Virus record (IMG/VR): IMGVR_UViG_2718217885_000013
Direction: 5' to 3' (one strand)
Length of the DNA stretch: 45,686 bases
Source of the DNA: a virus
Taxonomy: Duplodnaviria; Heunggongvirae; Uroviricota; Caudoviricetes
The notes beneath the pieces are model-generated. The model did not search any database. It was not told where the DNA came from and saw only the letters and a program-made list of their open reading frames with translations. Made by a program: the position numbers and the translations under genes. This document shows positions 1 through 45,686 of this stretch, piece after piece; the stretch's first letter is position 1; every line of letters begins with the position of its first letter.

Positions 1-750
1 TCAGTCAATTGTTTTGTTTATTCCATCTGTGACGCCGATTATTTTCTCAAAATAATGAGATGGCGTGACACCATAATAATCTTTAAATGCACATATGAAA
101 TATGAAGTACTGTTATAGCCACATTTCTGGGCTACGACATTGATAGAATAAGAGTTTGAAGTTATGAGTTTTTTTGCATACCTCATCCTAGTATCTCTCA
201 ATATTTCAGTAAATGACGTTCCTTCATCCCTTAATCTTTTTTTTATTAAACTTTCACTCGTATAAATCAATTCCGCAATATCTTTTAAATGCCATTGCCG
301 CTCAATATTAAAACTGATTATTCCAGTAATTTTACAGGTAAATGTATTTATATTTGTTAGTATAAATGAATTTACACTTTCGCGTTTTTTGAACATGGCA
401 AGTAAGGATATACATAGTCTTTCTTTTAACCAAAGGGAGTGTGAGTCTGCTATTTTAATCCCTTCAAACAGAGAAAAAACAAGCGATAATGGAGGTTCCT
501 CTTCAGCAATATAGCCATTCTTATCAAGAGTAAATTTGCCAGGCAGCTCATTATTCACGTCGATAAAAAAGGATAAACATGTTTTCTTATCTATATCAAC
601 AATTCTTAGTTTAGAGGGGCATACTGGTAACTCCCTTCTAATTTTGTCGCTTACAATAAACAATGAATTTTTTTTGAACGAGATAACTCTCCTGTTTATA
701 ATTAAATCAAATGATTGACAGATGAAAACTACGGAGCAAACATAATCCAT
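1..750 (-). CDS. appY: AraC-family transcriptional activator AppY
   Basis: 249-aa ORF whose translation ([22 protein letters not shown]...) matches remembered K-12 AppY; C-terminal AraC-type HTH; sits beside tfa/ybcY as in DLP12. Confidence 0.85.
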
Positions 751-1340
751 CTTGCACCTATCATAAAATTAAAACAAGTTGATAGTAGTCAAATAACAAC
801 CAATTAAATACACAATCATAATCAGGATGATGTGCATTTATATTTTTATACACAAAATTATAGTTTGCAAATTTTAATAAATTTCATTTAAGATTAAATT
901 ATTATATGTATGTTGTTTTTTATTCTAACTTATTTCAAAGTTACATTTTTCAACGCTTACTATGCTTTTTATTAACATAAACTCACTACAACGCACCTGA
1001 AACCTCTTGCTATATATATGTCAACCGTTTGAATTTAAAATAAAAAGAGTATCATTTTTACTTGCATTTCTTATCAAGTCACATTCAACAACAGTAAAAA
1101 AACATTATTAGAACCATTCAATTAACAAAAAACCAACATCCAGCTTGCTTAATTTTTCTTTATTAAACGATATTGAAAATCAATTGATAAAATACATCTA
1201 AACAACCTTTTGGGGCGCAAAAGCATAACATCAAACAAACAAATAACACACCGAAAAAACTCACAATTAATAACCTATGATATACATACTGTTTATTATG
1301 GTTGAATAAGCCACTCGATATCTGGTGCTACGGAAGTGTC
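751..1340. promoter_or_regulatory. AT-rich upstream region of appY with no ORF of 60 aa or more; probable promoter/silencing region
   Basis: About 590 bp of strongly A/T-rich sequence directly 5' of appY on the minus strand; function inferred. Confidence 0.3.
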
Positions 1341-1451
1341 CACACGGTTTAGCAGCACCCGATACTTTTTTCAGGCTTCCAGCAACGATCTTTCTTCCTC
1401 CGTTGCGATTTCCAGATCTACAGCATCCTGCAGTGGCGCAATATACTCACT
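1341..1451. repeat. Direct repeat copy 1 (tfa 3' segment), about 110 bp
   Basis: About 90 percent identical to 2389-2500 by eye (cacggtt.agca.cacccgatacttttt.caggcttccagcaa...ccgttgcgatttccagatctacagcatcctg). Confidence 0.7.
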
Positions 1452-1556
1452 GAATTCCTGGATGTAGAACTGTGTGGTGACGGTCTTCCAGCCATTCGGC
1501 TCCTGCTGTATTGAAGCATACCAGGCTATTTCAATATCGCTATGCTGCGGCAGCAT
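1371..1556 (-). pseudogene. Tail fibre assembly protein fragment (tfaX-like remnant)
   Basis: 61-aa ORF whose C-terminus ([23 protein letters not shown]) duplicates a segment near the C-terminus of the full tfa at 2335-2919, with an unrelated N-terminus. Confidence 0.6.
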
Positions 1557-1695
1557 TTAACCCCTTGTAATTCATTGCCATAATTGATTTAATTCACAAA
1601 TAAAACTATAACATGGTGAAATTAATAAAAAAAACACAGATGATGGGGCTAGAATTTACACACCACTTACCCTAAAGCTTTATGACTGGTGGGTT

Positions 1696-2280
1696 TTGGG
1701 AGTATCAAATCGGCTTGCATGGGGATGTCCTACAAAGGAACACCTTCTTCCACACTTTCTGGAACATTTAGGTAACAACCATCTGGATATTGGTGTTGGA
1801 ACTGGGTTTTACCTTACTCACGTACCTGAGAGTAGTCTGATATCTTTAATGGATTTGAACGAAGCTAGCCTGAACGCGGCATCTACAAGGGCTGGGGAAT
1901 CAAAAATTAAACATAAAATTAGCCATGATGTTTTTGAACCTTATCCCGCGGCGTTACATGGTCAATTTGATTCCATTTCCATGTTTTACCTTCTTCACTG
2001 CCTGCCTGGAAATATATCTACAAAAAGCTGTGTAATACGCAATGCGGCGCAGGCCTTAACTGACGATGGAACTCTATACGGAGCCACAATTCTTGGCGAT
2101 GGAGTTGTGCACAATAGCTTCGGTCAAAAACTGATGCGCATTTACAATCAGAAAGGCATCTTTTCAAACACAAAAGATTCCGAAGAAGGCTTAACACATA
2201 TACTCTCAGAGCATTTCGAGAATGTTAAAACCAAGGTTCAAGGTACTGTAGTAATGTTTTCCGCTTCAGGGAAAAAATAG
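1696..2280 (+). CDS. ybcY: Putative SAM-dependent methyltransferase (YbcY-like); start is TTG with no in-frame ATG near the 5' end, so possibly disrupted
   Basis: 194-aa ORF with a glycine-rich motif I-like segment (LDIGVGTGFYL); same position as the ybcY pseudogene in DLP12; the first codon of the track ORF is TTG. Confidence 0.45.
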   Translation: MGVSNRLAWGCPTKEHLLPHFLEHLGNNHLDIGVGTGFYLTHVPESSLISLMDLNEASLNAASTRAGESKIKHKISHDVFEPYPAALHGQFDSISMFYLLHCLPGNISTKSCVIRNAAQALTDDGTLYGATILGDGVVHNSFGQKLMRIYNQKGIFSNTKDSEEGLTHILSEHFENVKTKVQGTVVMFSASGKK

Positions 2281-2287
2281 CATCCAA

Positions 2288-2320
2288 CCGCAGCACGTTC
2301 TTGCTTAAGACGTGCTGCGG
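2288..2320. terminator. Perfect 11-bp inverted repeat between the convergent ybcY-like and tfa genes
   Basis: ccgcagcacgt-(11 nt)-acgtgctgcgg; a T-run follows on the minus strand after a short spacer. Confidence 0.45.
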
Positions 2321-2334
2321 CATAATCCCAATGA

Positions 2335-2919
2335 TTACTCCCTGACAGGGTTCGTAGGCCACTCAATATCAGGTGCAGTTGATGTATCAACACGGTTCAG
2401 CAACACCCGATACTTTTTCCAGGCTTCCAGCAATGAGGTTTCTTCCTCCGTTGCGATTTCCAGATCTACAGCATCCTGAAGTGGCGCAATATGCTCACTG
2501 GCTACCTGCATCAGGCTGTTTTTTATTTCTTCCGCCTCCCGGATCCGGAACAGTTTTTCTGCTTCTGCATCTTTCACCCAGGCTGTGCCGTTCCACTTCT
2601 GAAACTCCCCTTCCGGCGATAACCAGGTAACATTTTCCGGTAACGGACCGAGTTCAGAAATAAATAACTCGTCCCCTGACGCTACGTCATAAACCGTTTT
2701 ACCCCGATGGTCTTCAACGAGATGCCACGATGCCTCATCACTGTTGAAAACAGCCACGAAGCCAGCCGGAATATCTGGCGGTGCAATATCGGTACTGTTT
2801 GCTGGCAGACCTGTATGAGGCGGAATATATGCATCACCTTCACCAATAAATTCATTAGTTCCGGCCAGCAGATTATAAATTGTTATGGTCCGTGGTTGTT
2901 CACTCATTCTGAATGCCAT
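2335..2919 (-). CDS. tfa: Tail fibre assembly protein Tfa
   Basis: 194-aa translation recognised as lambda/e14-type Tfa; directly downstream of stf. Confidence 0.9.
2389..2500. repeat. Direct repeat copy 2 (within tfa)
   Basis: Partner of 1341-1451. Confidence 0.7.
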
Positions 2920-5900
2920 TATGCAAGCCTCACAATATAGTTAAATGCGATGTTTTTGACGGTGTTTTCCGCGTTACCAGCAGCGTTAACGGTGATGGTG
3001 TGTCCATGTGAGCCAATCGCAACGGAGTGCGTATGAGCACCAATACCGACAGTATGTGCGTGTGCACCTGCGCTTGCAGCAGTACCCGATACAGAGTGCG
3101 TATGAGCGCCTGCAGAAGAAGTGTTAACACTGTATTTAGAATAATCAGGTGATCCACTTCCCGGAGCACCACTGGAACCACCTGAAACAAATGTCATCGA
3201 ATGGGTATGTGCACCGGCTGAAGCAGCCGTACCGCTAACACTATGGGTATGTGCACCAGTGTTATTCGTGGATTTAGTGCCGTAATCAAACGATGATGTG
3301 GTTTTCGTCCCCAAATCCGTACTGGATGCGCTGGCGCTGTGGGTGTGCGATTTAATGCCGTCCTGTTCCTGAGACAATACGGCACGACCACTGGCGGGCT
3401 TGCCCTTAATCGTCCAGCCACGCATATCAGGAATAACGCCTGACGGATAAGCCACTGCAAGTTTCGGGTATGCAGATTTGTCAAAAGTCTGCCCCTGCAT
3501 CAGGGCATAGCCAGACGGAACGGTATCTGATGGCCACGGGATTGGTGCGCCGACTGGGTAGCTTTCTGGTGGAAGATTTTTCGAGGTATAAACTTCTGCC
3601 CAGTCATCCTCAAAACCATAACCGTCTCTTGAAGAACGGTAGAACAGACCACCATTTCTGTAATGCGCCTTCATCTGCAGGGTCCGGCAACTTCCGACTC
3701 CGGTATAGAAGTTAACCAGAATATAGCTGTCGCCAGAGCGAGTGACATTGTAAGCGCCTGATTCGGCATTCCATGGAACGCCACCATCCGCATCGGCATA
3801 TGTATCCGTTGCCCTTCTGGCAAAAGCAGCCACATGCGCGGCGGTTAAAGTAATATCTTTGGAACCATCAAACTCAACACCAGAAACCCGTCTTGGCGTT
3901 TGCAGCTTTGTTGCTGTTAATGCATTACCGTTCAGACTTGCGGACAGTTTGGTTCCAATAACCAGTTCGCCGGTTGCGTTATCAATAGCAAACGGTCTTA
4001 ATGTATTCCAGCCACCATAAACATCACCTTGATTGGTAAGCAGCAGGTAAGTTTTAGCGCCATCATTACGCCATAATGCACCATACTCTCCACCTATCAT
4101 TCGAATCTGATTACCACCACGCGCTACAATTTCGTCTGTGGCAAAAAGTTTTTTGCACGACAAGTTATCGTTAACGATTAACGAATGAGACTCATAAAAA
4201 CCACGCCCACTCTTAAAATCAAGGATAACGTCCGCCGCGATACATTCAGTCGCTGGATTTGTTGCCCCAAACTTATAGGTCGTATCATTAACAACGAGAT
4301 CAGCACCAGGTGCGGATATTGACAGGCCATCTTCGATAAACGCAAAAACAGGGAAAGCAGCGCCATCAACATAGAACACAGAGCGCAAATCATCGCCCTT
4401 ATTACTCATCATTATTGAGTGGATGGCTCGTTCATTGTTTTGATATTGCCAGAACATTCCATAAGCATAACGCCCCCTGTCAGTCCAGCCACCAGGCATA
4501 ACAAATCCGTTAAACTCGCAGTTATTCATCGGATCGCCTGCGGTTCGCGTTGCCGTGGTGATAATGACCCTTGATGCCAGTTCGCTTACTGAGCCAGCAG
4601 AACGCATAACAACAACAGGGTAATATTTTCCAGATGTTGCACCTGCAGGAGCGTTAACCCGCACATAACGCATACCACGCTTATCAGCAAAGTCTGTTTT
4701 ACTGACCGCGTTAATGTTGTTCAGGAAGCGTCCCTTATCGGGTATATCAGTGCCGTTCTGGTCTTTCTGCAGACGTTTCTCTGCATTGTCATAGGCTGAT
4801 TTTACTGCCTTTGGCGTTGCCGCCAGCGTTTCAGACGTACTGTTGGTCGCACTGCTGAGCTGTACTATCCCCTTTTTCGTCGTGCTCGCATCCTCAAGCG
4901 CCACGGCGGATGCAATATCCTCTGCCCGTTTTGCTGCTGTCTCGGCGCGCGTTGCCGCGGATTCCGCCGTACTTTTGCTCTGAGCTGCCGCCGTCGCACT
5001 GCCAGCTGCCTCTGTCGCCTTCGTGGATGCCGTCGTGGCGCTGCCCTTCGCTGCTGACGCCTGTCTGGTCGCCTCATCTTTTGAAGCAGACGCCGATGAT
5101 GCCGATGACGCCGCCGAACTGGCTGACGATGCGGCAGCCGTTTTTGAGGATTCTGCGCTGGTTTCCGACGCTTTCGCGTTCGTTTCGGATGTCTTCGCTG
5201 CGGAAGCTGACCTCGCTGCTACCGTGGCCTGTTCAGTGGCTTCGCCAGCCTTCGTTGTGGCTGTTGAAGCGGATGATGCGGCGCTTTCTGCCGACTTTCC
5301 GGCAGCGGTGGCACTGGCTGAGGCCTGCCCGGCATTTGTTGACGCGGCGCTGGCAGATGAGGCAGCCGCTGTTTTTGAGTCTGCTGCTGCGGAGGCACTC
5401 TGTCCCGCTGCCGTCTCAGAAGACTTTGCGTTCGTCTCGGACGTTTTTGCCGCCTTCGCGGAAGTTCCTGCCGCTGTTGCCGAGGAGGCTGCACGACTGG
5501 CGCTCGAGGCTGCGTTCGTTTCTGATGATTTCGCTGCCTCTTTTGAAGCCGACGCATCCCTGGCTGAAGTGGCTGCTTCTGACGCTTTCGTGGTCGCGGT
5601 GGATGCAGAAGTGGCTGCTGATTGTTGTGACGCTGCCGCATTCGTTTCTGACGTTTTCGCCGCACCGGCACTGGTAGCCGCCGCGCTTTTTGAGGACTCT
5701 GCAGCGGCAGCACTTTTTGATGCTTCAGTGGCCTTTGCTGATGCCGTTCCTGCGCTGGAAGACGCTGACTGAGCAGATGATGCAGCCTGTCCGGCTGACG
5801 TGCTGGCGGCACGTGCTGAGCCTGCAGCATCGGTTGCATGGGTTGCCGCCTCACGGGCAGATGTGCTGGCATCACTGGCTGACTTCTTCGCGGCTGCCGT

Positions 5901-6269
5901 GTTCTGTGCCACTGCGGACGCGTTACGCGCCACCTCTTCCACCATCAGTTCAAAACGGCGCAGTGCCTCCGGACGGGCATCATCCTCCGTCATGGCACCG
6001 AGAAAATCATTCAGCGTACCGGGTTGAGAATCTTCATACACGGTAATGGTCCCGGCATGTGACGGCGGGAATCCTTCCACCAACAGAATAACGCTGTACT
6101 GACCGTACTCAACGTCCATGCTGTAACGCCCGGCTTCATCCGGATTTTCTGAGGCCAGCGTGTTCACCACCACCGTGGTGCTGTTACGTTTTGCTTTCAG
6201 CTGGATTGTGCAGTTCTGTACCGGTTTTCCTGTGCCGTCTTTCAGTACACCTGAAATCTTTACTGCCAT
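2919..6269 (-). CDS. stf: Side tail fibre protein Stf
   Basis: N-terminus [27 protein letters not shown] matches lambda Stf; long Ala/Ser/Thr-rich central region; C-terminal GAHTHS repeats; ATG at 6269 is two codons inside the track ORF, which begins with GTG. Confidence 0.9.
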
Positions 6270-6280
6270 ATTCACCCCAC

Positions 6281-6307
6281 AAAAAAGCCCGCCTGAACCG
6301 GCGGGCT
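6281..6307 (-). terminator. Intrinsic terminator after lom, immediately upstream of the stf start
   Basis: Minus-strand AGCCCGCC-GGUUCA-GGCGGGCU followed by UUUUUU. Confidence 0.6.
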
Positions 6308-6333
6308 GTCATAACACTGTGTTACCTGGCTAA

Positions 6334-6933
6334 TCAGAACTTATAACCGACACCCACGATGAAACCGTCAGTGCGCCAGTCGCCACTGCCGGAGCCTTCA
6401 TAAGCAATATCAATGGCCACGGATTCGGTCGGGTTAAACTGCACGCCAGCTCCCCACGCCAGAGACGTGTTGCTGTGGCGACCGTCATCACTTCCGGTCA
6501 GCACATCGTGCGTTTTCCCCTTGTTGTCAGTTACGCGAAGATAATCCCCGGAGAAAGTCGACACACGGCTGTAAGCCACACCCGCCATCGCATACGCGCT
6601 GAACCATTCATTCACGCGCACAGACGGCCCCGCCATCACGCTGAACCAGCGGTTACGCACGGAATCTTCATGCCAGCGGGTATCGCTGTAATGGGTCAGC
6701 TGGCGATTCTTGTCTCCTGCATAGCTGAATGACGTCACCATCCCCAGTGTGTCCGTAAACTCATAACGGTATTTCACGTTAATCCCGTTCAGATCATCGC
6801 TGCCGGGAACGTTCGTCGAGGCATGAAGATACCCCGCGCTCAGCGTGGACTGATGTTCAGACGCCCATGCAGGCGCACCGGATACGGCCAGACAAATGGC
6901 TGCGGACAAAATGGCGGCATAAAGTTTACGCAT
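6334..6933 (-). CDS. lom: Outer membrane protein Lom (Ail/Lom family)
   Basis: 199-aa ORF with signal peptide and beta-barrel-type sequence; canonical position after J. Confidence 0.9.
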   Translation of the reverse strand: MRKLYAAILSAAICLAVSGAPAWASEHQSTLSAGYLHASTNVPGSDDLNGINVKYRYEFTDTLGMVTSFSYAGDKNRQLTHYSDTRWHEDSVRNRWFSVMAGPSVRVNEWFSAYAMAGVAYSRVSTFSGDYLRVTDNKGKTHDVLTGSDDGRHSNTSLAWGAGVQFNPTESVAIDIAYEGSGSGDWRTDGFIVGVGYKF

Positions 6934-6999
6934 AATTACCTCTCGCTTTTCTGCAATAAAAAAGGCGTCATTTCTGACGCCCGTTATGGGTTATAAAAT

Positions 7000-10401
<3,402 letters not shown>

Positions 10402-10458
10402 TCATGCTCCATAAACGATAAAACCGCCCGGAGGCGGTTTCACATAAAACATTTTGCA

Positions 10459-11771: not shown

Positions 11772-11776
11772 GGGAT

Positions 11777-32286: not shown

Positions 32287-32294
32287 TCTGATTA

Positions 32295-35343: not shown

Positions 35344-35368
35344 TAAAAAACCCAGCACCAACTGGGTT
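35344..35368 (-). terminator. Intrinsic terminator directly after the 164-aa secreted-protein gene
   Basis: Minus strand AACCCAG-uuggug-CUGGGUU followed by UUUUUAUUU. Confidence 0.65.
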
Positions 35369-35385
35369 CATATGAAATTTTTTTG

Positions 35386-35880
35386 TCATTTCCAATTGCA
35401 AGACTGTGAAATTTTTTCCACAACCTTATCAATCTCAGACAAGTCAAACTCAACTACTTGCATAGTTGATCCATAAGGTTCAAACCCAAAAATAGCTTTT
35501 TTATGCTTAGCCAAGGTCTTTATAAATTGTATTGGTTGTGGAGCAAATGCAGAATCACCGCCTTCCCCACCTCCCCAAGCACTCTTGACCGGCTTTCCGC
35601 CATCTAACCGCACTGTAATTCTTGGGTTGTCCGAACCCATATAATCATTGAATGATAAATAGGCATCTGTTTTGTTATCACTACAACGCAACACCAGTGA
35701 AGTTGCACGATCAGTACCTGCTTTGTTATATGAATCTGGTGATAAATTAAGAGCCACAAAGTCAGTCTGGTCAGTCATTTTATTTATCTCAGACTTTGTT
35801 ATCCACGGCCCTAACTTCTCTACACCAGCATTTGCAGTAAACGAGGCACTTATGACAAAGGCTATAATAAATTTTCTCAT
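35386..35880 (-). CDS. Hypothetical secreted/periplasmic protein (moron)
   Basis: 164 aa with a typical Sec signal peptide (MRKFIIAFVISASFTANA); own terminator; no family recognised. Confidence 0.6.
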   Translation of the reverse strand: MRKFIIAFVISASFTANAGVEKLGPWITKSEINKMTDQTDFVALNLSPDSYNKAGTDRATSLVLRCSDNKTDAYLSFNDYMGSDNPRITVRLDGGKPVKSAWGGGEGGDSAFAPQPIQFIKTLAKHKKAIFGFEPYGSTMQVVEFDLSEIDKVVEKISQSCNWK

Positions 35881-36026
35881 AACCCTATCTCCTTGGATTT
35901 AAAGAACTAAATATTATCAAGTCTCTTGCCACTAGAAAACCCACTTTATTTCCAAACTCTGATGGCATTCCTGAAAATCCGCTTCATACTCACTTGCCCC
36001 GCCCTATCATCCTGAGTAGCTAACCG

Positions 36027-36200
36027 TTAAACAAACGTTCGCCAGACCTTACCATCAATGACCAGGATTCCTGCCCGCGCCATTTTTGCCGCAGCCTGAT
36101 TTATGCTGGTTAATGTCACACCTGTTGTCGCAGCAACGTCCGGCGCACAGAAGCTCTTGTGCGTCTCCAGATAATGAATAATTGCCTCTTTGCCCGTTAT
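36027..36200 (-). pseudogene. ren: ren remnant (start codon lost, truncated)
   Basis: Hand translation ITGKEAIIHYLETHKSFCAPDVAATTGVTLTSINQAAAKMARAGILVIDGKVWRTFV matches the lambda Ren N-terminus; the lambda ATG is ATA here and the frame stops after about 57 codons. Confidence 0.7.
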
Positions 36201-36898
36201 ACAGTTGCTCCTTTCAGTCCGAACTTCGCTTTGATTTCTGCGATCTTCGCCAGAGCCTGTGCACGATTTAGAGGCCTACCGCCCATGACAGGAAGTTGTT
36301 TTACTGGTTCAGGTATCGCCTCACCACGGTTAATTCGCGCGGTCATACAGGTCAGCTCATCGGCAGCTTTACGCCGTAATTCCGCGTCAGTCAGCGCATT
36401 GGCCCGCATGTTCTGGTACAGGTTGGTAACCAACCAGTAGTGCGCGTTTGATTTCCATGGATAAGACTCTGCGTCCGGATACAGGCCACGCTTCCGGCAA
36501 TACTCGTAAACCATATCAACCAGCTCGCTGGCGTTTGGCAGTCCGGCGGTAACGGATGCTTCTTCCCGGCACCAGGCGACAAACTGCCCGGGTGATGGCA
36601 GGAATGGTCGATTCTGCCGACGGGCTACGCGCATTCCTGCGTTAACCTGTTCCATTGTGGTGATCCCGTTTTCCCGGAAAGCCAGAACCCACTGGCGGCG
36701 GATTTCGTTCAGTTCGTTCTGGTCCCGGTTAGCCAGGCTCGCCGGGAAAGTTGCCAGTAACTGGCTGAACACACCGTTGATGATCCGCGCTACCTGCTGT
36801 ACCTGCGGCTTTTCGTCGTACTGTTCCGGCATGTTGTTGGCGATCCGGCGCATCTGCTCACGGTCAAAGTTAACCATCTGTGCGGCGATGTTTTTCAT
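36197..36898 (-). CDS. P: Replication protein P (DnaB helicase loader)
   Basis: 233 aa, near-identical to lambda P (MKNIAAQMVNFDREQMRRIANNMPEQYDEKPQVQQV). Confidence 0.95.
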   Translation of the reverse strand: MKNIAAQMVNFDREQMRRIANNMPEQYDEKPQVQQVARIINGVFSQLLATFPASLANRDQNELNEIRRQWVLAFRENGITTMEQVNAGMRVARRQNRPFLPSPGQFVAWCREEASVTAGLPNASELVDMVYEYCRKRGLYPDAESYPWKSNAHYWLVTNLYQNMRANALTDAELRRKAADELTCMTARINRGEAIPEPVKQLPVMGGRPLNRAQALAKIAEIKAKFGLKGATV

Positions 36899-37824
36899 AA
36901 ATCCACCCCATAAATCCAGTCAGTGTTTGTCAGGTCGAGTTTTGATTTTCCGGCTGTCACGCCAGCCTGTTGCTTGTTACGGTTGATTTCGAGCTGGGTC
37001 CACTTGTCGCGGAGTTTGGCCGGACTTAGCACGTTACCGGACCAGAAGTTGTCCTGGCATGCCCAGCGGAACAGCACGCACATGTCGCGGTGGTTACGTC
37101 CGTCACGTTCACGCATCAGGCGGATATCGTTAGCCCACCCTGCAAAATTCGGTTTTCTGGCTGATGGCGCGATGGTCTTCACCATGTCAAACATCCACTC
37201 TGCGGCGGTCAGGTCTTCTGCTGTCCCCCACCTGCTGCCGCTCTGAATTGCAGCATCTGGTTTCTCCACAGGAAGATCGTTTTCTGGTTGGTCAGAGGAT
37301 TCGCCAGAATTCTCGGACGAAAAAGGTTTTATATTGTCTTTTGTTAGTTTGTCTTTTGTGTTTACCTGATTCGGGTAAACGCCTTTACCTGATTTGGGTA
37401 AACTTTTCTTACCTGATTCAGGTAAATTTACCTCTTTCAGGTAAACTTTATTTTTCTTACCTGATTCGGGTAATGTTGACCATTCACTGACCACATTATT
37501 AATGCCGATATTCCGCCCGCTCTGAATAAGAATCCCACGCTTTACCAGAACGCTTTTTGCAGCAGAACACTTGTGCGGCAATATCCCGGTCAACTCGGAA
37601 AGTTGCTCGTTGCTCACCCAATCCAGTTTTTTATTAAAGCCATATGTTTTGCGCATGACAGCCAGGAAGACCAGAAGCTGGTGCTGTGTTAATCCGGCCA
37701 GCATCACAGCTTCCAGCAACTCATTTGCAATGCGCGTATAACCATCATCGAGATCTGCCACGCGCGGCTCCTTTTGTGCCGCATCCGGCACTGGAAAATT
37801 GAATATCTCAGCAGTGTTTGCCAT
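36895..37824 (-). CDS. O: Replication initiator O; alternative upstream start at 37914
   Basis: Lambda O-like N-terminus spacing from MANTAEIFNF with a GGGAGG Shine-Dalgarno; C-terminus conserved; iterons inside the gene; the track ORF begins 30 codons upstream with an ATG coupled to the preceding stop. Confidence 0.8.
   Translation of the reverse strand: MANTAEIFNFPVPDAAQKEPRVADLDDGYTRIANELLEAVMLAGLTQHQLLVFLAVMRKTYGFNKKLDWVSNEQLSELTGILPHKCSAAKSVLVKRGILIQSGRNIGINNVVSEWSTLPESGKKNKVYLKEVNLPESGKKSLPKSGKGVYPNQVNTKDKLTKDNIKPFSSENSGESSDQPENDLPVEKPDAAIQSGSRWGTAEDLTAAEWMFDMVKTIAPSARKPNFAGWANDIRLMRERDGRNHRDMCVLFRWACQDNFWSGNVLSPAKLRDKWTQLEINRNKQQAGVTAGKSKLDLTNTDWIYGVDL
37363..37474. repeat. Replication origin iterons: five copies of about 18 bp (TACCTGATTCGGGTAAAC type) next to an AT-rich stretch (37321-37362)
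   Basis: Direct repeats tacctgattcgggtaaac, tacctgatttgggtaaac, tacctgattcaggtaaat, tacctctttcaggtaaac, tacctgattcgggtaat read in the sequence, inside O. Confidence 0.85.
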
Positions 37825-37910
37825 AATTCCTCCCGCAATGAGTGTGTTACGATTTGCACCTGAAAGTCGGTTCTGTTCCCGCAGACCGACTTTCGCCATT
37901 TCTGAACCTG

Positions 37911-38450
37911 TCATATTGCCCCCAGCATGGTGGTCACCATCGCCATTAATGGACCAGCCAGATCCGGGTCCACACGAAACATCGACACAATACCTTCACT
38001 CATTTCCTTCAGTTTCTGGTGGCGTGGTGCGTTGAGAATGACAGCCTGTTTTGCCTCACTGAGTTCCTTTTCCATTTCAGCCAACCGAGTCATGAAGCTA
38101 TCCTGCTCAACCAGGTAACCGCGATATTCCAGCGGTAGTACCGCCAGAATTGCCGGGGTCAGTTCACGCACGTTATTTCGGTATTTTTCAGAATCGAATT
38201 TGTTATCGAGGAAGCGGAACAGCTTCTGGCGTGCACGGCTGACATCATCAGGGAAATCGATGGTGCCGTCGCCCTGCTCCCGATACTCATTCACAATGAG
38301 TGCGGCAACGACATCCTGATTATCTACAGCCGACCAGGCGCGGACGGCATCACGGATTTTTTCGTGGCCTGGAGCTTGTTTTGTTTGAGAACGATTTATC
38401 ACCGCAGTCGGAATAAATCCGCTAGTCTGTTGGTATGTAAGTGGTTGCAT
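37911..38450 (-). CDS. YdaT-like protein in the cII position
   Basis: 179 aa; AAGGAG Shine-Dalgarno; segment LTPAILAVLPLEYR recalls Rac YdaT; downstream of the Cro-like gene. Confidence 0.55.
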   Translation of the reverse strand: MQPLTYQQTSGFIPTAVINRSQTKQAPGHEKIRDAVRAWSAVDNQDVVAALIVNEYREQGDGTIDFPDDVSRARQKLFRFLDNKFDSEKYRNNVRELTPAILAVLPLEYRGYLVEQDSFMTRLAEMEKELSEAKQAVILNAPRHQKLKEMSEGIVSMFRVDPDLAGPLMAMVTTMLGAI

Positions 38451-38519
38451 AATTGACTCCTTTAGTTTGAATTGACTGTTAAGTTGATTGCTTATTGTTA
38501 AAGAGCGTGAAATGGAAAT

Positions 38520-38750
38520 TTAAGCTGCGTTCTTTTCGGTGTGTGGAAACAACTTCGGAAGATCCGGGCGAATCTGGTATGCCTTCACAACTCCACCAGT
38601 AGCCGTAACAATGCTGCCGACATGTTCAGGGGATACCTTTGCTTTGTTGTGAAGCCACTTATAGACGGCCTGCTGTGAAACTTCGCAGGCATCGCCTAGT
38701 TTCTTTTGTGAACCAACGATATTGATCGCTGTTTTGATTGCTGGGTTCAT
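38520..38750 (-). CDS. Cro-like HTH regulator (YdaS-type)
   Basis: 76 aa with HTH (GSQKKLGDACEVSQQAVYKWL); divergent from cI; GGAGG Shine-Dalgarno. Confidence 0.75.
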   Translation of the reverse strand: MNPAIKTAINIVGSQKKLGDACEVSQQAVYKWLHNKAKVSPEHVGSIVTATGGVVKAYQIRPDLPKLFPHTEKNAA

Positions 38751-38854
38751 AACAACCTCCGTGGTTAATCCGAATCAAGATTAAAACTATGGTTGTTTTT
38801 AGTCAACAACCATTTTCGTTTGATGAAATAAAACCTTGGTTGTACATTTGATCT
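38751..38854. promoter_or_regulatory. Right operator/promoter region (OR, PR, PRM)
   Basis: Repeated GGTTGTT/AACAACC half-sites including palindrome ATGGTTGTT-N7-AACAACCAT (38789-38813); candidate PR (TTGACT-17-TAATCT, minus strand) and PRM (TTGATG-17-TACATT, start near the cI ATG, implying a leaderless cI mRNA). Confidence 0.7.
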
Positions 38855-39544
38855 ATGAAAACAACACTCTCAGAAAGACTTAAAGAAGCCAGATTAGCGC
38901 GAGGCCTTACACAAAAGGCGCTTGGGGATTTGGTCGGGGTTAGCCAGGCTGCTATTCAGAAAATCGAAACAGGGAAAGCTAACCAAACAACTAAAATCGT
39001 GGAGATCGCGAACGCTTTGGGTGTGCGCGCAGAATGGTTATCTTCTGGCGTTGGAAATATGTCAGACAGTACAGTGCAACCAATACAATCAACTGTCAGC
39101 CATTCCAAATACTTCAAAATTGACGTTCTTGATATAGAAGTCAGTGCCGGGCCAGGTGTAATCAACCGTGAGTTTGTAGAAGTTCTACGCTCGGTTGAGT
39201 ACTCGTTTGACGATGCTCGTCACATGTTCGATGGCAGGAAGGCGGAAAATATCCGCATCATTAACGTGCGAGGTGACAGCATGTCAGGGACGATCGAACC
39301 AGGTGACCTGCTGTTCGTTGATATCACTGTTAAATCTTTCGACGGTGATGGCATCTATGCGTTTCTGTACGACGACACTGCCCATGTAAAACGTCTTCAA
39401 ATGATGAAGGATAAGCTGCTGGTTATCTCTGATAACAAGAGCTACTCGCCGTGGGACCCGATCGAGAAAGACGAGATGAACCGGGTGTTCATATTCGGTA
39501 AGGTCATTGGAAGCATGCCGCAGACGTACAGGAAGCATGGTTAA
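38855..39544 (+). CDS. cI: CI-type repressor (HTH plus LexA/S24 autocleavage domain)
   Basis: 229 aa; N-terminal HTH (LTQKALGDLVGVSQAAIQKIETGK); C-terminal S24-like region with GDSM and a later Lys. Confidence 0.9.
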   Translation: MKTTLSERLKEARLARGLTQKALGDLVGVSQAAIQKIETGKANQTTKIVEIANALGVRAEWLSSGVGNMSDSTVQPIQSTVSHSKYFKIDVLDIEVSAGPGVINREFVEVLRSVEYSFDDARHMFDGRKAENIRIINVRGDSMSGTIEPGDLLFVDITVKSFDGDGIYAFLYDDTAHVKRLQMMKDKLLVISDNKSYSPWDPIEKDEMNRVFIFGKVIGSMPQTYRKHG

Positions 39545-39773: not shown

Positions 39774-40154
39774 ATGAGAAAAATCCTAATCGCTGTCATG
39801 ATGGCATCTGTATTGGCTGGGTGTGCTTCTTCAGGCAACCAGCAACTCAAAAATGAAACTGAAATTAGTGTCCAGTCTAAACTTCAGGAAGGTAAAACAA
39901 CCAAGAATGAGGTTAAATCTTACTTTGGTTCTCCTGATGCTGTTTCATATACTGACAGTGGAAACGAGATCTGGAAGTACGCCTTTGCAAAAGTAAAAGT
40001 TAATGGCACCACTTTTATTCCATTCTATGGATTATTCCATAATGGAACGAACGGTACGAAAAAAGAACTTACTATTCTTTTTAACGATGACACGATTAAG
40101 AAATACACAATGTCAGAAACCCAAATAAACTCGAAATCAGGTTGGGCTGACTGA
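39774..40154 (+). CDS. Lipoprotein with BamE (SmpA/OmlA)-like pattern, in the rex position
   Basis: 126 aa; lipobox LAGC; pattern G-K-T-x-x-E-V...FGSP...W-x-Y...LTILFN resembles BamE; has its own candidate -10 TATAAT at 39753-39758. Confidence 0.6.
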   Translation: MRKILIAVMMASVLAGCASSGNQQLKNETEISVQSKLQEGKTTKNEVKSYFGSPDAVSYTDSGNEIWKYAFAKVKVNGTTFIPFYGLFHNGTNGTKKELTILFNDDTIKKYTMSETQINSKSGWAD

Positions 40155-40162
40155 TAATCATA

Positions 40163-40189
40163 CCCGGCAACCGCGCCGGGTTTTCTTTT
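40163..40189 (+). terminator. Intrinsic terminator after the lipoprotein gene (end of the cI operon)
   Basis: CCCGGC-aaccgc-GCCGGG followed by TTTTCTTTT. Confidence 0.7.
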
Positions 40190-40280: not shown

Positions 40281-40357
40281 AAATACAACCAGTTATATTT
40301 AAAACAACCGACAAAACAACTTTTGTTGTTGACGATAAAACAACTATAGTTTTAAAT
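40281..40357 (+). promoter_or_regulatory. Left operator/promoter region (OL/PL)
   Basis: The same AACAACC/GGTTGTT half-sites as OR, including AACAAC-tttt-GTTGTT at 40315-40330; candidate PL TTGACG (40329-40334)-17-TTAAAT (40352-40357). Confidence 0.65.
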
Positions 40358-40361
40358 AAAT

Positions 40362-40413
40362 TCATCGCAACGACACAACGATACGGTAACCACCTGTTTC
40401 ACCGTTGCGATGA
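40362..40413 (+). other. Large hairpin (11-bp perfect stem, 29-nt loop) at the predicted 5' end of the PL transcript
   Basis: TCATCGCAACG ... CGTTGCGATGA read in the sequence; function unknown. Confidence 0.4.
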
Positions 40414-40634
40414 CCACTTAGATCCGCAGTTTGAATTTCAGCAGGCTTCGGGGAGTGCGAGGGGTGAAGCGGACGCGTGAACGTCGGTGTGACCAGCTGA
40501 AATCAACTCAACACTTCATACCTCAGTCGCTTCAACGAGGCGACTTAGTTATGACAACCGGCGGCCATCCACCGCCTGAATACGCGCAGAAGTCTCTATA
40601 TGTTCAGCAGCCCAGCTTACGGGCAGGAGTTTTT

Positions 40635-40841
40635 ATGGTTCATCAACATTACGGAACGCAGACCGTTAATCGAGGTGCGGTCATGCCAGGAATGCTGGTC
40701 AAACACAAAGATGGTACCTGGACTGCATCAGCTAATTTACGCGGACGGCTTTATCTGCATCGCGGCATCGAGCGCACTTATACCCGTGATTTGCTCGTGG
40801 AAGTTTTTCTCGACGGACGCGGTAACGGCCTGAATCGCTAA
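40635..40841 (+). CDS. Hypothetical early-left protein in the kil position; start uncertain (alternatives 40551 or 40431)
   Basis: ATG at 40635 has an AGGAG Shine-Dalgarno 5 nt upstream; the track ORF begins at a TTG; lambda homology resumes exactly at this ORF's stop. Confidence 0.4.
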   Translation: MVHQHYGTQTVNRGAVMPGMLVKHKDGTWTASANLRGRLYLHRGIERTYTRDLLVEVFLDGRGNGLNR

Positions 40842-40916
40842 TCCCCTTTCCTGTTTTCCTAATCAGCCTGGCATTTCGCGGGCAATATTTTCACAGCCAT
40901 TTTCAGGAGTTCAGCC

Positions 40917-41213
40917 ATGAACGCTTATTACATTCAGGATCGTCTTGAGGCTCAGAGCTGGGCGCGTCACTACCAGCAGATCGCCCGTGAAGAGAAAGAG
41001 GCAGAACTGGCAGACGACATGGAAAAAGGCCTGCCCCAGCACCTGTTTGAATCGCTATGCATCGATCATTTGCAACGCCACGGGGCCAGCAAAAAAGCCA
41101 TTACCCGTGCATTTGATGACGATGTTGAGTTTCAGGAGCGCATGGCGGAACACATCCGGTACATGGTTGAAACTATTGCTCACCATCAGGTTGATATTGA
41201 TTCAGAGGTATAA
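40917..41213 (+). CDS. gam: Gam, host RecBCD inhibitor (short GamS form)
   Basis: 98 aa near-identical to lambda GamS ([21 protein letters not shown]). Confidence 0.95.
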
Positions 41214-41218
41214 AACAA

Positions 41219-42004
41219 ATGAGTACTGCACTCGCAACGCTGGCAGGGAAGCTGGCTGAACGTGTCGGCATGGATTCTGTCGACCCACAGGAACTGATCA
41301 CCACTCTTCGCCAGACGGCATTTAAAGGTGATGCCAGCGATGCGCAGTTCATCGCATTGTTGATCGTCGCCAACCAGTACGGCCTTAATCCGTGGACGAA
41401 AGAAATTTACGCCTTCCCTGATAAGCAGAACGGCATCGTTCCGGTGGTGGGCGTTGATGGCTGGTCCCGCATCATCAATGAAAACCAGCAGTTTGATGGT
41501 ATGGACTTTGAGCAGGACAATGAATCCTGCACATGCCGGATTTACCGCAAGGACCGTAATCATCCGATCTGCGTTACCGAGTGGATGGATGAATGCCGCC
41601 GCGAACCATTCAAAACCCGCGAAGGCAGAGAAATCACGGGGCCGTGGCAGTCGCATCCCAAACGGATGTTACGTCATAAAGCCATGATTCAGTGTGCCCG
41701 TCTGGCCTTCGGATTTGCTGGTATCTATGACAAGGATGAAGCCGAGCGCATTGTCGAAAATACCGCATACACTGCAGAACGTCAGCCGGAACGCGACATC
41801 ACTCCGGTTAACGATGAAACCATGCAGGAGATTAACACTCTGCTGATCGCCCTGGATAAAACATGGGATGACGACTTATTGCCGCTCTGTTCCCAGATAT
41901 TTCGCCGCAACATTCGTGCATCGTCAGAACTGACACAGGCCGAAGCAGTAAAAGCTCTTGGATTCCTGAAACAGAAAGCCGCAGAGCAGAAGGTGGCAGC
42001 ATGA
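41219..42004 (+). CDS. bet: Bet, single-strand annealing recombinase
   Basis: 261 aa near-identical to lambda Bet. Confidence 0.95.
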
Positions 42005-42681
42005 CACCGGACATTATCCTGCAGCGTACCGGGATCGACGTGAGAGCTGTCGAACAGGGGGATGATGCGTGGCACAAATTACGGCTCGGCGTCATCACCG
42101 CTTCAGAAGTTCACAACGTGATAGCAAAGCCCCGCTCAGGAAAGAAGTGGCCTGACATGAAAATGTCCTACTTCCACACCCTGCTGGCTGAGGTTTGCAC
42201 CGGTGTGGCTCCGGAAGTTAATGCTAAGGCGCTGGCCTGGGGAAAACAGTACGAGAACGACGCCAGAGCCCTGTTTGAGTTTACTTCCGGCGTGAATGTT
42301 ACTGAATCCCCGATCATCTATCGCGACGAAAGTATGCGCACCGCCTGCTCTCCCGATGGTTTATGCAGTGACGGCAACGGCCTTGAACTGAAATGCCCGT
42401 TTACCTCCCGGGATTTCATGAAATTCCGGCTCGGTGGTTTCGAGGCCATAAAGTCGGCTTACATGGCCCAGGTGCAGTACAGCATGTGGGTGACGCGAAA
42501 AGATGCCTGGTACTTTGCCAACTATGACCCGCGCATGAAGCGTGAAGGCCTGCATTATGTCGTGATTGAGCAGGATGAAAAGTACATGGCGAGTTTTGAC
42601 GAGATGGTGCCGGAGTTCATCGAAAAAATGGACGAGGCACTGGCTGAAATTGGTTTTGTATTTGGGGAGCAATGGCGATGA
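42001..42681 (+). CDS. exo: Exo, lambda exonuclease
   Basis: 226 aa near-identical to lambda Exo. Confidence 0.95.
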
Positions 42682-42839
42682 AGCATCCTCACGATAATAT
42701 CCGGGTAGGCACGATCACTTTCGTCTACTCCGTTACAAAGCGAGGCTGGGTATTTCCCGGCCTTTCTGTTATCCGAAATCCCCTGAAAGCACAGCGGCTG
42801 GCTGAGGAGATAAATAATAAACGGGGGCTGTATGACTGA
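42678..42839 (+). CDS. Small hypothetical protein (53 aa), translationally coupled between exo and the methyltransferase
   Basis: ATG overlaps the exo stop (ATGA) and its stop overlaps the methyltransferase start (ATGACTGA); hand translation [53 protein letters not shown]. Confidence 0.5.
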
Positions 42840-43389
42840 TTTCACCGGAAGCAATACTCCTGCCGAACATCGCGACAGCTGGCGCACACCACCAGAGATT
42901 TTTGCTGCGCTTAATGCAGAGTTCGTTTTTCAACTTGATGCTGCCGCCAGCGAAAAAAACCGACTATGTCGGCTTTTTATCTCACAGGAGCAGAACACAT
43001 TAACCACTTCATGGCCTGAAGCAATGGGATATGCCTCTGGTTATGTCTGGTTGAATCCACCATACAGCAATATTTCCCCTTTTGTGAAAAAGGCAGCCAC
43101 TGAAAACAAATTCAGTAGTGTGGGATGTGTAATGTTATTGCCTGCTGACACATCTGTCGGATGGTTTCATGAAGCGATACAAACCGCCAGTGAGGTCAGA
43201 TTCATCACGGCAGGACGACTGGCATTTATTAACCCACTCACTGAGAAACCCGTCAGTGGAAATAATAAAGGCTCGATGCTCATTATCTGGCACCCATACC
43301 CCCGTACACACTGCCACTTTACGACCGTTGATCGTGGAGAGTTGATGGCGTTCGGCTCAAGGATTCTTGCCCGTCGGGAGGCTGCATGA
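42832..43389 (+). CDS. Phage-type DNA N6-adenine methyltransferase (Dam-like)
   Basis: 185 aa with the amino-methyltransferase catalytic motif NPPY (WLNPPYSN). Confidence 0.8.
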   Translation: MTDFTGSNTPAEHRDSWRTPPEIFAALNAEFVFQLDAAASEKNRLCRLFISQEQNTLTTSWPEAMGYASGYVWLNPPYSNISPFVKKAATENKFSSVGCVMLLPADTSVGWFHEAIQTASEVRFITAGRLAFINPLTEKPVSGNNKGSMLIIWHPYPRTHCHFTTVDRGELMAFGSRILARREAA

Positions 43390-43469
43390 CAACCACGGAA
43401 TGCATTTTTCTGGCAGCGGGCTTCATATTCTGTGTGCTTATGCTTGCCGACATGGGACTTGTTCAATGA
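43386..43469 (+). CDS. Possible 27-aa hydrophobic micro-protein
   Basis: MTTTECIFLAAGFIFCVLMLADMGLVQ; start overlaps the methyltransferase stop and its stop overlaps the next start (both ATGA); read by hand. Confidence 0.3.
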   Translation: MTTTECIFLAAGFIFCVLMLADMGLVQ

Positions 43470-43681
43470 CACCTCAGCACGAAAACGCCCTTCGCAGCAT
43501 TGCCCGTCAGGCTAATTCTGAAATCAAAAAAGCCAGACAGCAGTTTCCGGATAAAAACGTCGATGACATTTGCCGTAGCGTACTAAAGAAGCACCGCGAA
43601 ACGGTAACGCTGATGGGATTCACACCGACTCATTTAAGCCTGGCGATCGGCATGTTAAACGGCGTCTTTAAGGAACGGTGA
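43466..43681 (+). CDS. Hypothetical 71-aa protein
   Basis: ATG-initiated part of the track ORF 43367-43681, from MTPQHENALRSIARQ. Confidence 0.5.
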   Translation: MTPQHENALRSIARQANSEIKKARQQFPDKNVDDICRSVLKKHRETVTLMGFTPTHLSLAIGMLNGVFKER

Positions 43682-43703
43682 ACATGAAAAGCAAAATCAT
43701 CAG

Positions 43704-43726
43704 GGAGCTACAGGCTCCTTTTTTAT
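43704..43726 (+). terminator. Intrinsic terminator after the exo-methyltransferase block
   Basis: GGAGC-tacag-GCTCC followed by TTTTTTATT. Confidence 0.45.
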
Positions 43727-43779
43727 TGTTCGCATTCATCCTCAAGCGTATTAACCAACAATTCAGGGATTAATGGAAG

Positions 43780-43998
43780 ATGGCAGACATCATTGATTCG
43801 GCATCAGAAATCGAAGAATTACAGCGCAATACAGCAATAAAAATGCGTCGTCTGAACTACCAGACTGTATCCGCAACTCATTGTTGTGAGTGTGGCGATC
43901 CGATAGATGAGCGAAGACGCCTGGCTGTTCAGGGTTGTCGGACTTGTGCAAGTTGCCAGGAGGAGATCGAACTTAAGAACAAACAATGGGGACTGTGA
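43780..43998 (+). CDS. TraR/DksA-family C4 zinc-finger protein
   Basis: 72 aa with the CxxC-N17-CxxC spacing (CCECGDPIDERRRLAVQGCRTCASC). Confidence 0.8.
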   Translation: MADIIDSASEIEELQRNTAIKMRRLNYQTVSATHCCECGDPIDERRRLAVQGCRTCASCQEEIELKNKQWGL

Positions 43999-44045
43999 TG
44001 GCCTCAAAGCAGCAAATTTCAACATCGTCCAACTGAGGTGTAAAA

Positions 44046-44324
44046 ATGTTCAGAATCATTTTTCCTAACACCTGGTACGTCGACCACCACGGCACTCCCT
44101 GCAAAATCCTGCGTTCTACCCACAACAAAGTTCACTACATCCGAAAAGGCAGAACATGTATCGCCAGCATGTTCCGCTTTAATCATGACTTTGAACCTGT
44201 GAATAAAGCTGATGCAGATCGGATAGCAGAAGAGATCGAAACGGCAGAACACATTAAGAAGTTACGTGACATGCGTTCAAAAAGCAGAGGTAACCATGGA
44301 ATCATACAGCCTCACACTCGATGA
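44046..44324 (+). CDS. Hypothetical phage protein
   Basis: 92-aa ORF; no family recognised. Confidence 0.5.
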   Translation: MFRIIFPNTWYVDHHGTPCKILRSTHNKVHYIRKGRTCIASMFRFNHDFEPVNKADADRIAEEIETAEHIKKLRDMRSKSRGNHGIIQPHTR

Positions 44325-44667
44325 GGCCTGTCAGTTTCTTAAGATATCCAGACCAACCGCCACCAACTGGATACGAACAGGCCGCCTACAGGCAACACGT
44401 AAAGATCCAACCAAGCCAAAATCTCCTTACCTCACAACACGGCAAGCCTGCATTGCGGCGCTTCAGTCTCCGCTGCATACTGTCCAGGTGAGCGCGGGTG
44501 ATGGCATAACAGAGGAAAGAAAATGTCACTCTTCCGCAGAAATGAAATATGGTATGCCTCGTATTCGCTCCCGGGCGGGAAACGAATTAAGGAATCTCTT
44601 GGCACAAAGGACAAGCGGCAAGCTCAGGAGTTGCACGACAAGCGAAAAGCAGAACTCTGGCGAGTAG
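44296..44667 (+). CDS. xis: Excisionase-like HTH protein; 3' end overlaps int, true C-terminus uncertain
   Basis: [31 protein letters not shown] is a typical Xis/AlpA-type HTH; GAGG Shine-Dalgarno; immediately upstream of int. Confidence 0.6.
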
Positions 44668-45686
44668 AAAAGCTAGGGGATTTACCTGATGTCACTTTTG
44701 AAGAGGCCTGCCTAAGATGGCTTGAGGAAAAAGCTGATAAAAAATCTCTCGATTCAGATAAAAGCCGGATTGAGTTCTGGCTTGAACATTTTGAGGGTAT
44801 AAGGCTTAAAGATATCTCGGAGGCAAAGATTTACTCTGCTGTAAGCAGAATGCATAACAGAAAGACGAAAGAAATATGGAAACAGAAAGTTCAGGCCGCC
44901 ATCAGGAAAGGTAAAGAACTGCCTGTTTATGAACCAAAGCCAGTATCAACTCAGACAAAGGCAAAGCATCTTGCCATGATAAAGGCCATTCTCCGTGCTG
45001 CAGAACGCGACTGGAAGTGGCTGGAAAAAGCGCCTGTCATCAAGATACCAGCGGTCAGAAACAAGCGAGTCAGATGGCTGGAAAAGGAGGAAGCAAAACG
45101 CCTTATTGATGAGTGCCCCGAACCACTGAAATCTGTCGTCAAGTTTGCGCTGGCAACTGGTCTGAGAAAGTCGAACATCATAAATCTGGAATGGCAACAA
45201 ATCGACATGCAGCGACGAGTTGCCTGGGTGAATCCAGAAGAGAGCAAATCAAACCGCGCCATTGGTGTGGCGCTGAACGATACCGCCTGTAAAGTGTTGC
45301 GTGATCAAATAGGCAAGCATCACAAATGGGTGTTTGTACATACCAAGGCGGCTAAGCGAGCAGATGGAACATCAACGCCTGCGGTCAGGAAGATGCGCAT
45401 CGACAGCAAGACATCATGGCTATCAGCTTGTCGTCGTGCAGGAATTGAAGATTTCCGTTTCCATGACCTCAGACACACCTGGGCAAGCTGGCTGATCCAG
45501 TCAGGCGTCCCATTATCTGTGCTTCAGGAAATGGGCGGATGGGAGTCCATAGAAATGGTTCGTAGGTATGCTCACCTTGCGCCTAATCATTTGACAGAGC
45601 ATGCAAGGAAAATAGACGACATTTTTGGTGATAATGTCCCAAATATGTCCCACTGTGGAATTATGGAGGATATAAAGAAGGCGTAA
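44523..45686 (+). CDS. intD: Tyrosine integrase (DLP12 IntD-like)
   Basis: 387 aa; C-terminal catalytic residues (R...HDLRHTWAS...Y); translation matches remembered IntD; stop at the window edge. Confidence 0.95.

Follow-up and report, generated by a model that had tools for sequence, protein, structure and literature searches.

Evidence for a full-length lambdoid prophage at the DLP12 site of Escherichia coli

The stretch of DNA analyzed here, the 45,686-nucleotide IMG/VR virus record IMGVR_UViG_2718217885_000013 (the window, taken over its whole length), very probably covers all but the ends of a full-length temperate prophage of the lambdoid type, integrated at the 3′ end of the tRNA-Arg gene argU, the site that in E. 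coli K-12 holds the prophage remnant DLP12. This is the best explanation of the window overall. The reverse complement of the window is found as a chromosomal prophage in two complete genomes, those of E. coli OkiPb01715 (bovine feces, Japan; one single-nucleotide polymorphism, SNP) and 09-00049 (lettuce, USA; four SNPs), and in both strains the prophage is placed between argU and envY. An assembly chimera is unlikely, because the two independent complete assemblies agree. Contiguous relatives of 47–48 kb with an annotated intD occur in other complete genomes, for example PapRG-06-5 and ARS-C101; all genome counts given below are among 5,426 complete E. coli genomes.

The boundaries of the element are defined by a 47-bp core, CTTCTAAGTCGTGGGCCGCAGGTTCGAATCCTGCAGGGCGCGCCATT, which is the 3′ end of argU and recurs as an exact second copy downstream of ompT. 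The two attachment (att) copies lie 47,372 bp apart, the length of the full unit (cores at 2235-2281 and 49607-49653 of the wider chromosomal locus, L001). The window itself is cut at the stop codon of appY at its start and the stop codon of int at its end; past position 1 the element runs ~1.67 kb further, via ompT to attR, and attL, with its core inside argU, begins 14 bp past the window end. The initial annotation of this DNA, made from the sequence alone, proposed an apparently complete relative of DLP12, which holds for the full-length element and not for the window, as both att cores and ompT fall outside it. DLP12 of K-12 is bounded by an identical pair of 47-bp cores, this sequence has been described as the attR of DLP12 (PMC6379469), and the isolated phage PhiR26_1 has the same core and the same ompT arm.

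Annotation, an open reading frame (ORF) map and collinear alignment all recovered the full DLP12 gene content and order, from appY to int, that had been proposed initially, and the order is lambdoid throughout: int/xis, recombination, divergent cI/cro, replication, nin, Q, lysis, cos/terminase, head and tail. On sequence comparison the element is a mosaic that combines DLP12-type int/xis, nin-Q, nmpC, lysis genes and right arm (tfa-ybcY-tfaX-appY-ompT) with lambda-type Red genes, P and tail, a phage-21-type cos, terminase and head, and a YdaS/YdaT-type immunity region with a LexA-like cI. Against the K-12 reference (DLP12, NC_000913.3 564755-586056), the window is collinear and the shared segments are 93.6–99.6% identical at the DNA level: int and the 3′ part of xis (99.5%), an exo fragment (98.4%), a fragment of P annotated as peaD (93.6%), ylcH to quuD (96.6%), nmpC to ybcW (97.9%), and the tfa-ybcY-tfaX-appY arm (99.6%). 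The K-12 copy is derivable from a prophage resembling the window by way of three deletions, insertions of IS3 and IS5, and module swaps. Protein identity to K-12 is 100% for eleven proteins, including AppY, QuuD, RrrD, RzpD, RzoD, BorD, YbcV, YbcW, YlcI, YbcO, and TfaX, and protein identity reaches 99.5% for IntD and 98.6% for EssD.

The genes required of a functional phage appear to be undamaged. All 58 annotated RefSeq coding sequences translate from the window with no internal stop, and every essential gene is equal in length to its counterpart in phage 21 or PhiR26_1. The products of int, exo, bet, gam, cI, cro, the cII-like gene, O, P, Q, S, R, Rz, and the genes from Z to I are 95–100% identical to those of PhiR26_1 at equal lengths, and xis, Rz1, the G-T slippery site and the dual start of S are intact. 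Frameshifts or deletions in essential genes, which the initial annotation had named as the finding that would overturn a potentially inducible phage, were looked for by alignment and none were found. The 47.4-kb unit lies inside the 42.9 kb (phage 21) to 50.1 kb (ev017) range of isolates that share the head module. Three lesions are present: a dead ren, a lineage-specific intergenic IS3, and a C7A change in cosN. The initial assertion that all modules are intact is borne out by the full-length essential genes; it had overlooked the IS3, the cosN change, and a terminator-like site upstream of Q. Judging from the sequence, nothing was found that would clearly stop induction; SOS-induced excision, replication and lysis are likely, and for the production of infectious virions the chances appear evenly balanced.

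The early region is 98.4% identical in DNA to that of PhiR26_1, with two gaps, and the cI, cro, cII-position, Exo, Gam, and Q proteins are 100% identical. The cI repressor (38855-39544, +) has Pfam-matched helix-turn-helix (HTH) and S24 peptidase domains and, with Ala98-Gly99, Ser142 in GDSM, and Lys179 in VKRL, has the sequence features of an SOS-cleavable repressor. It is separated from cro (38520-38750, -; YdaS family) by the OR/pR/pRM region (38751-38854), with operator half-sites AAAAC..GGTTGT, and cro is followed by the gene in the cII position (37911-38450, -; YdaT family); both family assignments derive from Pfam and PHROG matches. The palindromic operator motif AAAACAAC..GTTGTTTT occurs in the cI-cro gap and again at 40296-40360, and this second occurrence places OL/pL to the right of a BamE-like lipoprotein gene (39774-40154, +; lipobox LAGC, with a strong terminator of its own at 40162-40181) and that gene in the position of lambda rex. 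The candidate OL/pL (40296-40560, +) consists of AAAACAAC..GTTGTT operators (40296-40360) and, after them, a structured leader that is conserved. Given its rexAB-like position between cI and the candidate OL/pL, expression of the lipoprotein gene in the lysogen is probable.

A KilR-type kil, the first ORF beyond the candidate pL, opens a run of genes (40635-44324, +) comprising kil, gam, bet, exo, a DUF1317 gene, a Dam-type methyltransferase gene (42832-43389), orf61, and TraR-like and DUF4222 genes; within these leftward early genes, DNA identity to lambda 31194-33193 is 97.7%. A P22-type excisionase gene of 123 codons follows (xis, 44296-44667, +; phrog_2907, E 5.9e-46, positions 1-116 of the 117 in the profile). 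The xis ORF overlaps the start of int by 145 nt and is 100% identical in PhiR26_1, where it is likewise unannotated; the K-12 copy is truncated by a deletion. The tyrosine integrase gene intD (44523-45686, +) encodes a protein 99.7% identical to PhiR26_1 Int. On the other side of cro, O (36895-37914, -; 99.1% protein identity to PhiR26_1) contains five ori iterons, TTTACCTGATTCGGGTAA, at 37357-37473, and P (36197-36898, -) encodes a protein 97.4% identical to lambda P and 99.1% identical to that of PhiR26_1.

Downstream of P, the ren remnant recognized in the initial annotation is a pseudogene (35932-36200, -) with ATA in place of the start codon, an internal stop, and a frameshift, based on alignment to PhiR26_1 ren and a RefSeq note; the gene is dead but non-essential. 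Between ren and ylcH lies a variable slot occupied here by a 1.4-kb module (34533-35955, -) that replaces the emrE-ybcKLM genes of K-12 and corresponds in position to PD-lambda-1 in PhiR26_1. The module encodes a protein of 66 residues (34556-34756) and, at 35386-35880 (-), a VasI/TagO-like product (Pfam VasI, phrog_1848) whose gene is followed by a hairpin resembling a terminator (35348-35369). The ylcH, ybcN, ninE, ybcO, rusA, ylcG, and quuD (Q antiterminator) genes occupy 32476-34447 (-). The interval between Q and nmpC (32287-32475, -), presumed from its position only to hold the late promoter and Q-utilization region, is identical to PhiR26_1 throughout. The nmpC porin gene (31189-32286, +) sits between Q and S on the opposite strand and, as first described, is uninterrupted, an ORF of 365 codons encoding a protein 99.7% identical to the PhiR26_1 porin; K-12 has an IS5 at the matching position.

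The lysis cassette comprises an S21-type pinholin with the dual start MKFM (30385-30600, -; the EssD homolog), the signal-arrest-release (SAR) endolysin R (29888-30385, -; identical to RrrD and 98.8% identical to phage 21 R), Rz (29430-29891, -; RzpD), and Rz1 embedded within it (29489-29671, -; RzoD). The genes bor (29105-29398, +), ybcV (28404-28814, +), ybcW (27912-28118, -), and ylcI (26292-26486, +), each encoding one of the proteins fully identical to K-12, lie between the lysis genes and cos. The spacer between ybcW and ylcI, intact and unoccupied in both PhiR26_1 and K-12, is interrupted by a 1,258-bp IS3 (26628-27885, -; 99.9% identical to K-12 IS3C) flanked by a 3-bp target duplication, AAC, at 26625-26627 and 27886-27888. 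The transposase is oriented along late transcription and the element lies ~535 bp upstream of cosN. The IS3 junction was found only in 09-00049 and OkiPb01715, and its limitation to two near-identical strains indicates a recent insertion.

The packaging site and head genes are of the phage 21 type. The cos region (25926-26122, -) was located by alignment to the circularized phage 21 junction and a pattern scan, and contains cosQ (GGGTCCT, 26116-26122, -), which is identical to that of phage 21 and the same as that of lambda, cosN (26081-26092, -), and, between cosN and Nu1 on the same strand, a phage-21-type cosB (R3-I1-R2-R1) that differs from phage 21 by one substitution and one extra T. The cosN reads GGGCGGAGACCT, one substitution (C7A, at 26086) away from GGGCGGCGACCT, the form in lambda, phage 21, PhiR26_1, and DLP12. 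The match to phage 21 (positions 1-18189, with a DNA identity of 98.0%) opens exactly at cosN position 1 and runs through most of J; within it the head and packaging genes Nu1, A, W, B, C/Nu3, D, E, FI, and FII (17939-25903, -) encode proteins of equal lengths with 98–100% identity, with Nu1, FI and FII at 100% and A at 99.7%.

The tail genes Z, U, V, T/G, H, M, L, K, I, and J (7000-17927, -) are 96.6% identical in DNA to lambda 7837-18461. Their products are all full length, including a J protein of 1,132 residues, and are 89–100% identical to those of lambda, 21 or PhiR26_1; the T/G slippery site, GGGAAAG, is identical to that of phage 21. The sole SNP relative to OkiPb01715, at window position 17252, changes Ala34 of gpU to Glu and was considered as a lesion and rejected, Glu34 being the native residue of phage 21. 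Beyond J lie lom (6334-6933, -), encoding an Ail/Lom outer-membrane protein 97.5% identical to PhiR26_1 Lom and 45% identical to lambda Lom, stf (2919-6269, -), a single ORF of 1,116 codons with an Ala/Ser-rich shaft, and tfa (2335-2919, -), whose product is 99% identical to Tfa of PhiR26_1 and 93% identical to that of lambda. A match to the Rfam candidate small RNA IS009 (2378-2576, -; 227.9 bits) falls wholly within the tfa coding sequence. The arm continues with ybcY (1621-2280, +), an intact class I S-adenosylmethionine-dependent methyltransferase gene whose product is 99.5% identical to its PhiR26_1 homolog, tfaX (1371-1556, -), a remnant of a second tail fiber assembly gene that is identical to K-12 TfaX and treated as a pseudogene in RefSeq, and appY (1-750, -), encoding an AraC-family regulator.

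As read from the sequence, the cargo of the element is nmpC, bor, lom, appY, ompT, the cI-adjacent lipoprotein gene, two methyltransferase genes and the VasI/TagO-like gene. The appY, nmpC, bor, and lom cargo listed in the initial annotation is all present, and the list had omitted ompT and the lipoprotein gene. A PADLOC scan of ten accessory proteins recovered only the orphan Dam-type methyltransferase and otherwise no defense system.

Homology to lambda, 21 and P22 allows the most likely life cycle to be outlined. Int would recombine the 47-bp core identical to the end of argU, and cI would hold the AAAACAAC..GTTGTTTT operators at OR and OL until its cleavage after SOS induction. Transcription from pL would then express kil, gam, bet, exo, xis, and int, and transcription from pR would express cro, the cII-like protein, O, and P, with O predicted to bind the five iterons within its own gene. 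QuuD-modified polymerase would start just downstream of Q, pass antisense through nmpC and then through the pinholin, SAR endolysin, and spanin genes, and continue over the IS3 and cos into the head and tail genes, after which the phage-21-type terminase would cut cosN to leave 12-nt cohesive ends.

A number of observations weigh against a prophage competent for this entire cycle. The IS3, though intergenic, lies inside the single late transcription unit that extends from the lysis genes to cos/Nu1, and it could be polar if the Q-modified polymerase fails to read through it. The leader ~55 bp upstream of S carries a 16-bp insertion, CTGCTTTTTTGCGATA, relative to K-12 and PhiR26_1 (30640-30660, -), after a short palindrome. 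The C7A cosN is rare, occurring in 4 of the complete genomes and, in IMG/VR, in a single contig compared to at least 120 with the canonical site, even if by analogy with lambda the change looks tolerable. An N gene was not matched by tblastn with lambda N or by blastp of phage 21 N against the annotated proteins, and this N-less phage has terminator-like hairpins upstream of Q (35348-35369) and of xis/int (43702-43720, between orf61 and the TraR-like gene). Among the isolated phages of the collection, none has the VasI/TagO-like module. Finally, RefSeq/PGAP (the Prokaryotic Genome Annotation Pipeline) places just a 63–66-nt HTH pseudogene at xis and leaves xis itself uncalled.

The main rival explanation is a recently grounded prophage, one that looks complete but yields no infectious particles and represents an early stage of DLP12-like decay. 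The cause would be one or more of IS3 polarity, the cosN C7A change, termination upstream of Q for lack of N, or an unseen missense change, and such a prophage might still be able to excise, replicate or lyse. This explanation is a serious contender, if somewhat short of an even chance. The lineage-specific IS3 in the late operon, the rarity of the cosN variant, the decayed ren, and the terminator-like site that follows a moron absent from isolated phages are all in its favor, and DLP12 of K-12 has likewise acquired an IS3. Further, ~74% of strains have an occupied DLP12 site, and the occupants are mostly defective (PMC6379469). Yet no essential ORF is damaged, the IS3 is intergenic, and the genome remains of a packageable size. 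RNA polymerase modified by lambda Q passes terminators, and an intergenic IS3 therefore need not be polar. Changes at base pairs 7–12 of lambda cosN have minimal effect and are subject to natural variation (Feiss et al., PMC4669245), and the C7A cos is common to a different prophage. In strain MS15046 (human cerebrospinal fluid; L129, 20001-20031) the same variant is accompanied by an identical Nu1 protein (WP_000867568.1) within a different mosaic that has a different immunity region. On this basis the variant is argued to be tolerated, and the variant cos module to have moved between phage genomes.

A separate question is whether the full-length prophage described here is the direct, intact ancestor of the K-12 remnant, such that DLP12 would be the window phage with pieces removed. 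The collinearity of the shared segments at 94–99.6% and the 99.6% identity of the right arm, appY included, are what such descent would leave. DLP12 lacks the regions from the 5′ part of xis to exo, from exo to P, and from A to tfa (the largest, ~22 kb), has IS3 in ren and IS5 in nmpC, whereas the IS3 of the window is at another site, and has a ybcY pseudogene in contrast to the intact gene of the window. The swapped modules make direct ancestry very improbable. DLP12 has a lambda-type nohD and cosB, unlike the phage-21-type Nu1 and cosB of the window: the ylcI-cos-Nu1 stretch is just 82.6% identical in DNA to K-12, and NohD is 51% identical to the window Nu1 compared to 98.9% to the Nu1 of PhiR26_1. 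The nohD-type Nu1 of the initial annotation is accordingly to be replaced by a phage-21-type Nu1, which is 100% identical in protein to that of phage 21. The K-12 locus (L005) aligns continuously with PhiR26_1 over 11187-17062 at 98.4%, and in the cos/Nu1 region PhiR26_1 is nearer to DLP12 than the window is. DLP12 also carries emrE-ybcK-ybcL-ybcM in the slot that holds the 1.4-kb module; protein comparison with K-12 DLP12 gave no match in the window for emrE, ybcK, or ybcL, and only a weak 33% match for ybcM, positioned inside appY. Owing to the differences in packaging type and in the emrE-ybcKLM slot, the window is a mosaic cousin of K-12 DLP12 and not its ancestor.

The N-less early region, which PhiR26_1 shares, has implications for early antitermination. 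In tblastn searches of the window, lambda cII, cIII, and kil had no match either. A perfect 13-nt boxA of the rrn/phage-21 type, CGCTCTTTAACAA, lies 13 nt after cro (38495-38507, -); no boxB-like hairpin accompanies it, and the pL leader has no boxA. The pL leader, ~190 nt long and structured, retains ~95% conservation among isolated phages that differ in their immunity regions. An ORF open in frame upstream of the kil start (40464-40634, +) begins with the arginine-rich VKRTRERRCDQLK; its residues 19-55 are conserved as protein in Enterobacter phages and the arginine-rich part is not. The sequence VKRTRERR was considered as an N-type arginine-rich motif and is treated as chance, as the diverged Enterobacter phage homologs cover residues 19-55 only. 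A put-like RNA was likewise considered and rejected: an Rfam scan of the whole window returned only the IS009 match inside tfa, the pL leader shows no similarity in DNA to HK022 and matches HK225 over just 46 bp, the fold z-score of the leader is only -2.0, and no second copy of the leader hairpin was found. It is conceivable, if improbable, that the N-less lineage (the prophage together with isolated relatives such as PhiR26_1, 4A7, 1W, and Perceval) achieves early antitermination by rrn-like boxA-dependent host factors only, by a cis-acting leader RNA, or by both. Should this prove true, it would constitute a third antitermination solution beside N/nut and the HK022 put RNAs, and the terminator-flanked VasI/TagO-like moron upstream of Q would provide a natural test case.

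A lambdoid phage of full length and apparent competence, with ompT, appY, nmpC, bor, and lom as cargo, can thus reside at the DLP12 site, which fits a view of these K-12 'host' genes as phage cargo that is still able to move. The copy in the window shows prophage decay at its outset, with a single IS3, a dead accessory gene, and a point change in cos, in contrast to the three deletions of the K-12 remnant. Beyond such bookkeeping the importance of the element is small. The DLP12 locus was already known to be occupied in most E. coli. Nor is a complete phage of this kind as novel as was initially implied: GenBank already contains complete isolated relatives such as PhiR26_1, and, because these isolates have their integrase, Q, porin, lysis genes, and ompT arm in common with the element, the finding is right in outline and ordinary.

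The GenBank record of PhiR26_1 (PV340555.1) describes a complete phage genome, gives MG1655 as the host, and is the source for the viability of the phage; PhiR26_1 presumably originates from the panel of lambda-related temperate phages for which PMC13190303 cites Brenes and Laub (2025). It shares with the window int (99.7%), an identical xis ORF, the 47-bp core, the ompT arm, and the lysis genes, as well as Bor and the early proteins listed above (cI, cro, cII-like, Q, Exo, and Gam) at 100%, the porin at 99.7%, and the tail at 96% in DNA. In contrast, PhiR26_1 has a lambda-type terminase and head (Nu1 53% identical to that of the window), an intact ren, PD-lambda-1 and Rha in the variable module, another gene in the place of appY, no IS3, and a canonical cosN. 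Four further isolates, PhiR30_1, PhiR34_1, PhiR68_2, and ev243, match the window through the end of int and have an integrase annotated there.

The remaining modules have their counterparts in the classical lambdoid phages. Phage 21 (OL657228.1) resembles the window from cos to J (98.0% in DNA) and in the pinholin, SAR endolysin, and spanin cassette (85–99%), but its attachment site is icd, its int, xis, and Q differ from those of the window, tRNA genes stand where the window has nmpC, and it possesses N, nut sites with boxB, cII, cIII, and a canonical cosN. Lambda (NC_001416.1) shares the genome architecture and cosQ, together with DNA similarity from Z to J (96.6%), in exo-bet-gam (97.7%), in the P region (91.8%), and from Rz through bor to the right end (97–98%), whereas its int, xis, N, cI, cro, cII, cIII, Q, S, and R have no detectable homologs in the window and its head and terminase proteins are just 52–67% identical. 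Some 23.6 kb of the window can be aligned to lambda, the main near-identical blocks amounting to ~17 kb at 92–98%; these blocks provide a sequence basis on which recombination with lambda may take place. PA-2, known from the literature of the 1980s, is a viable lambdoid phage that carries the nmpC-like porin gene lc as lysogenic-conversion cargo.

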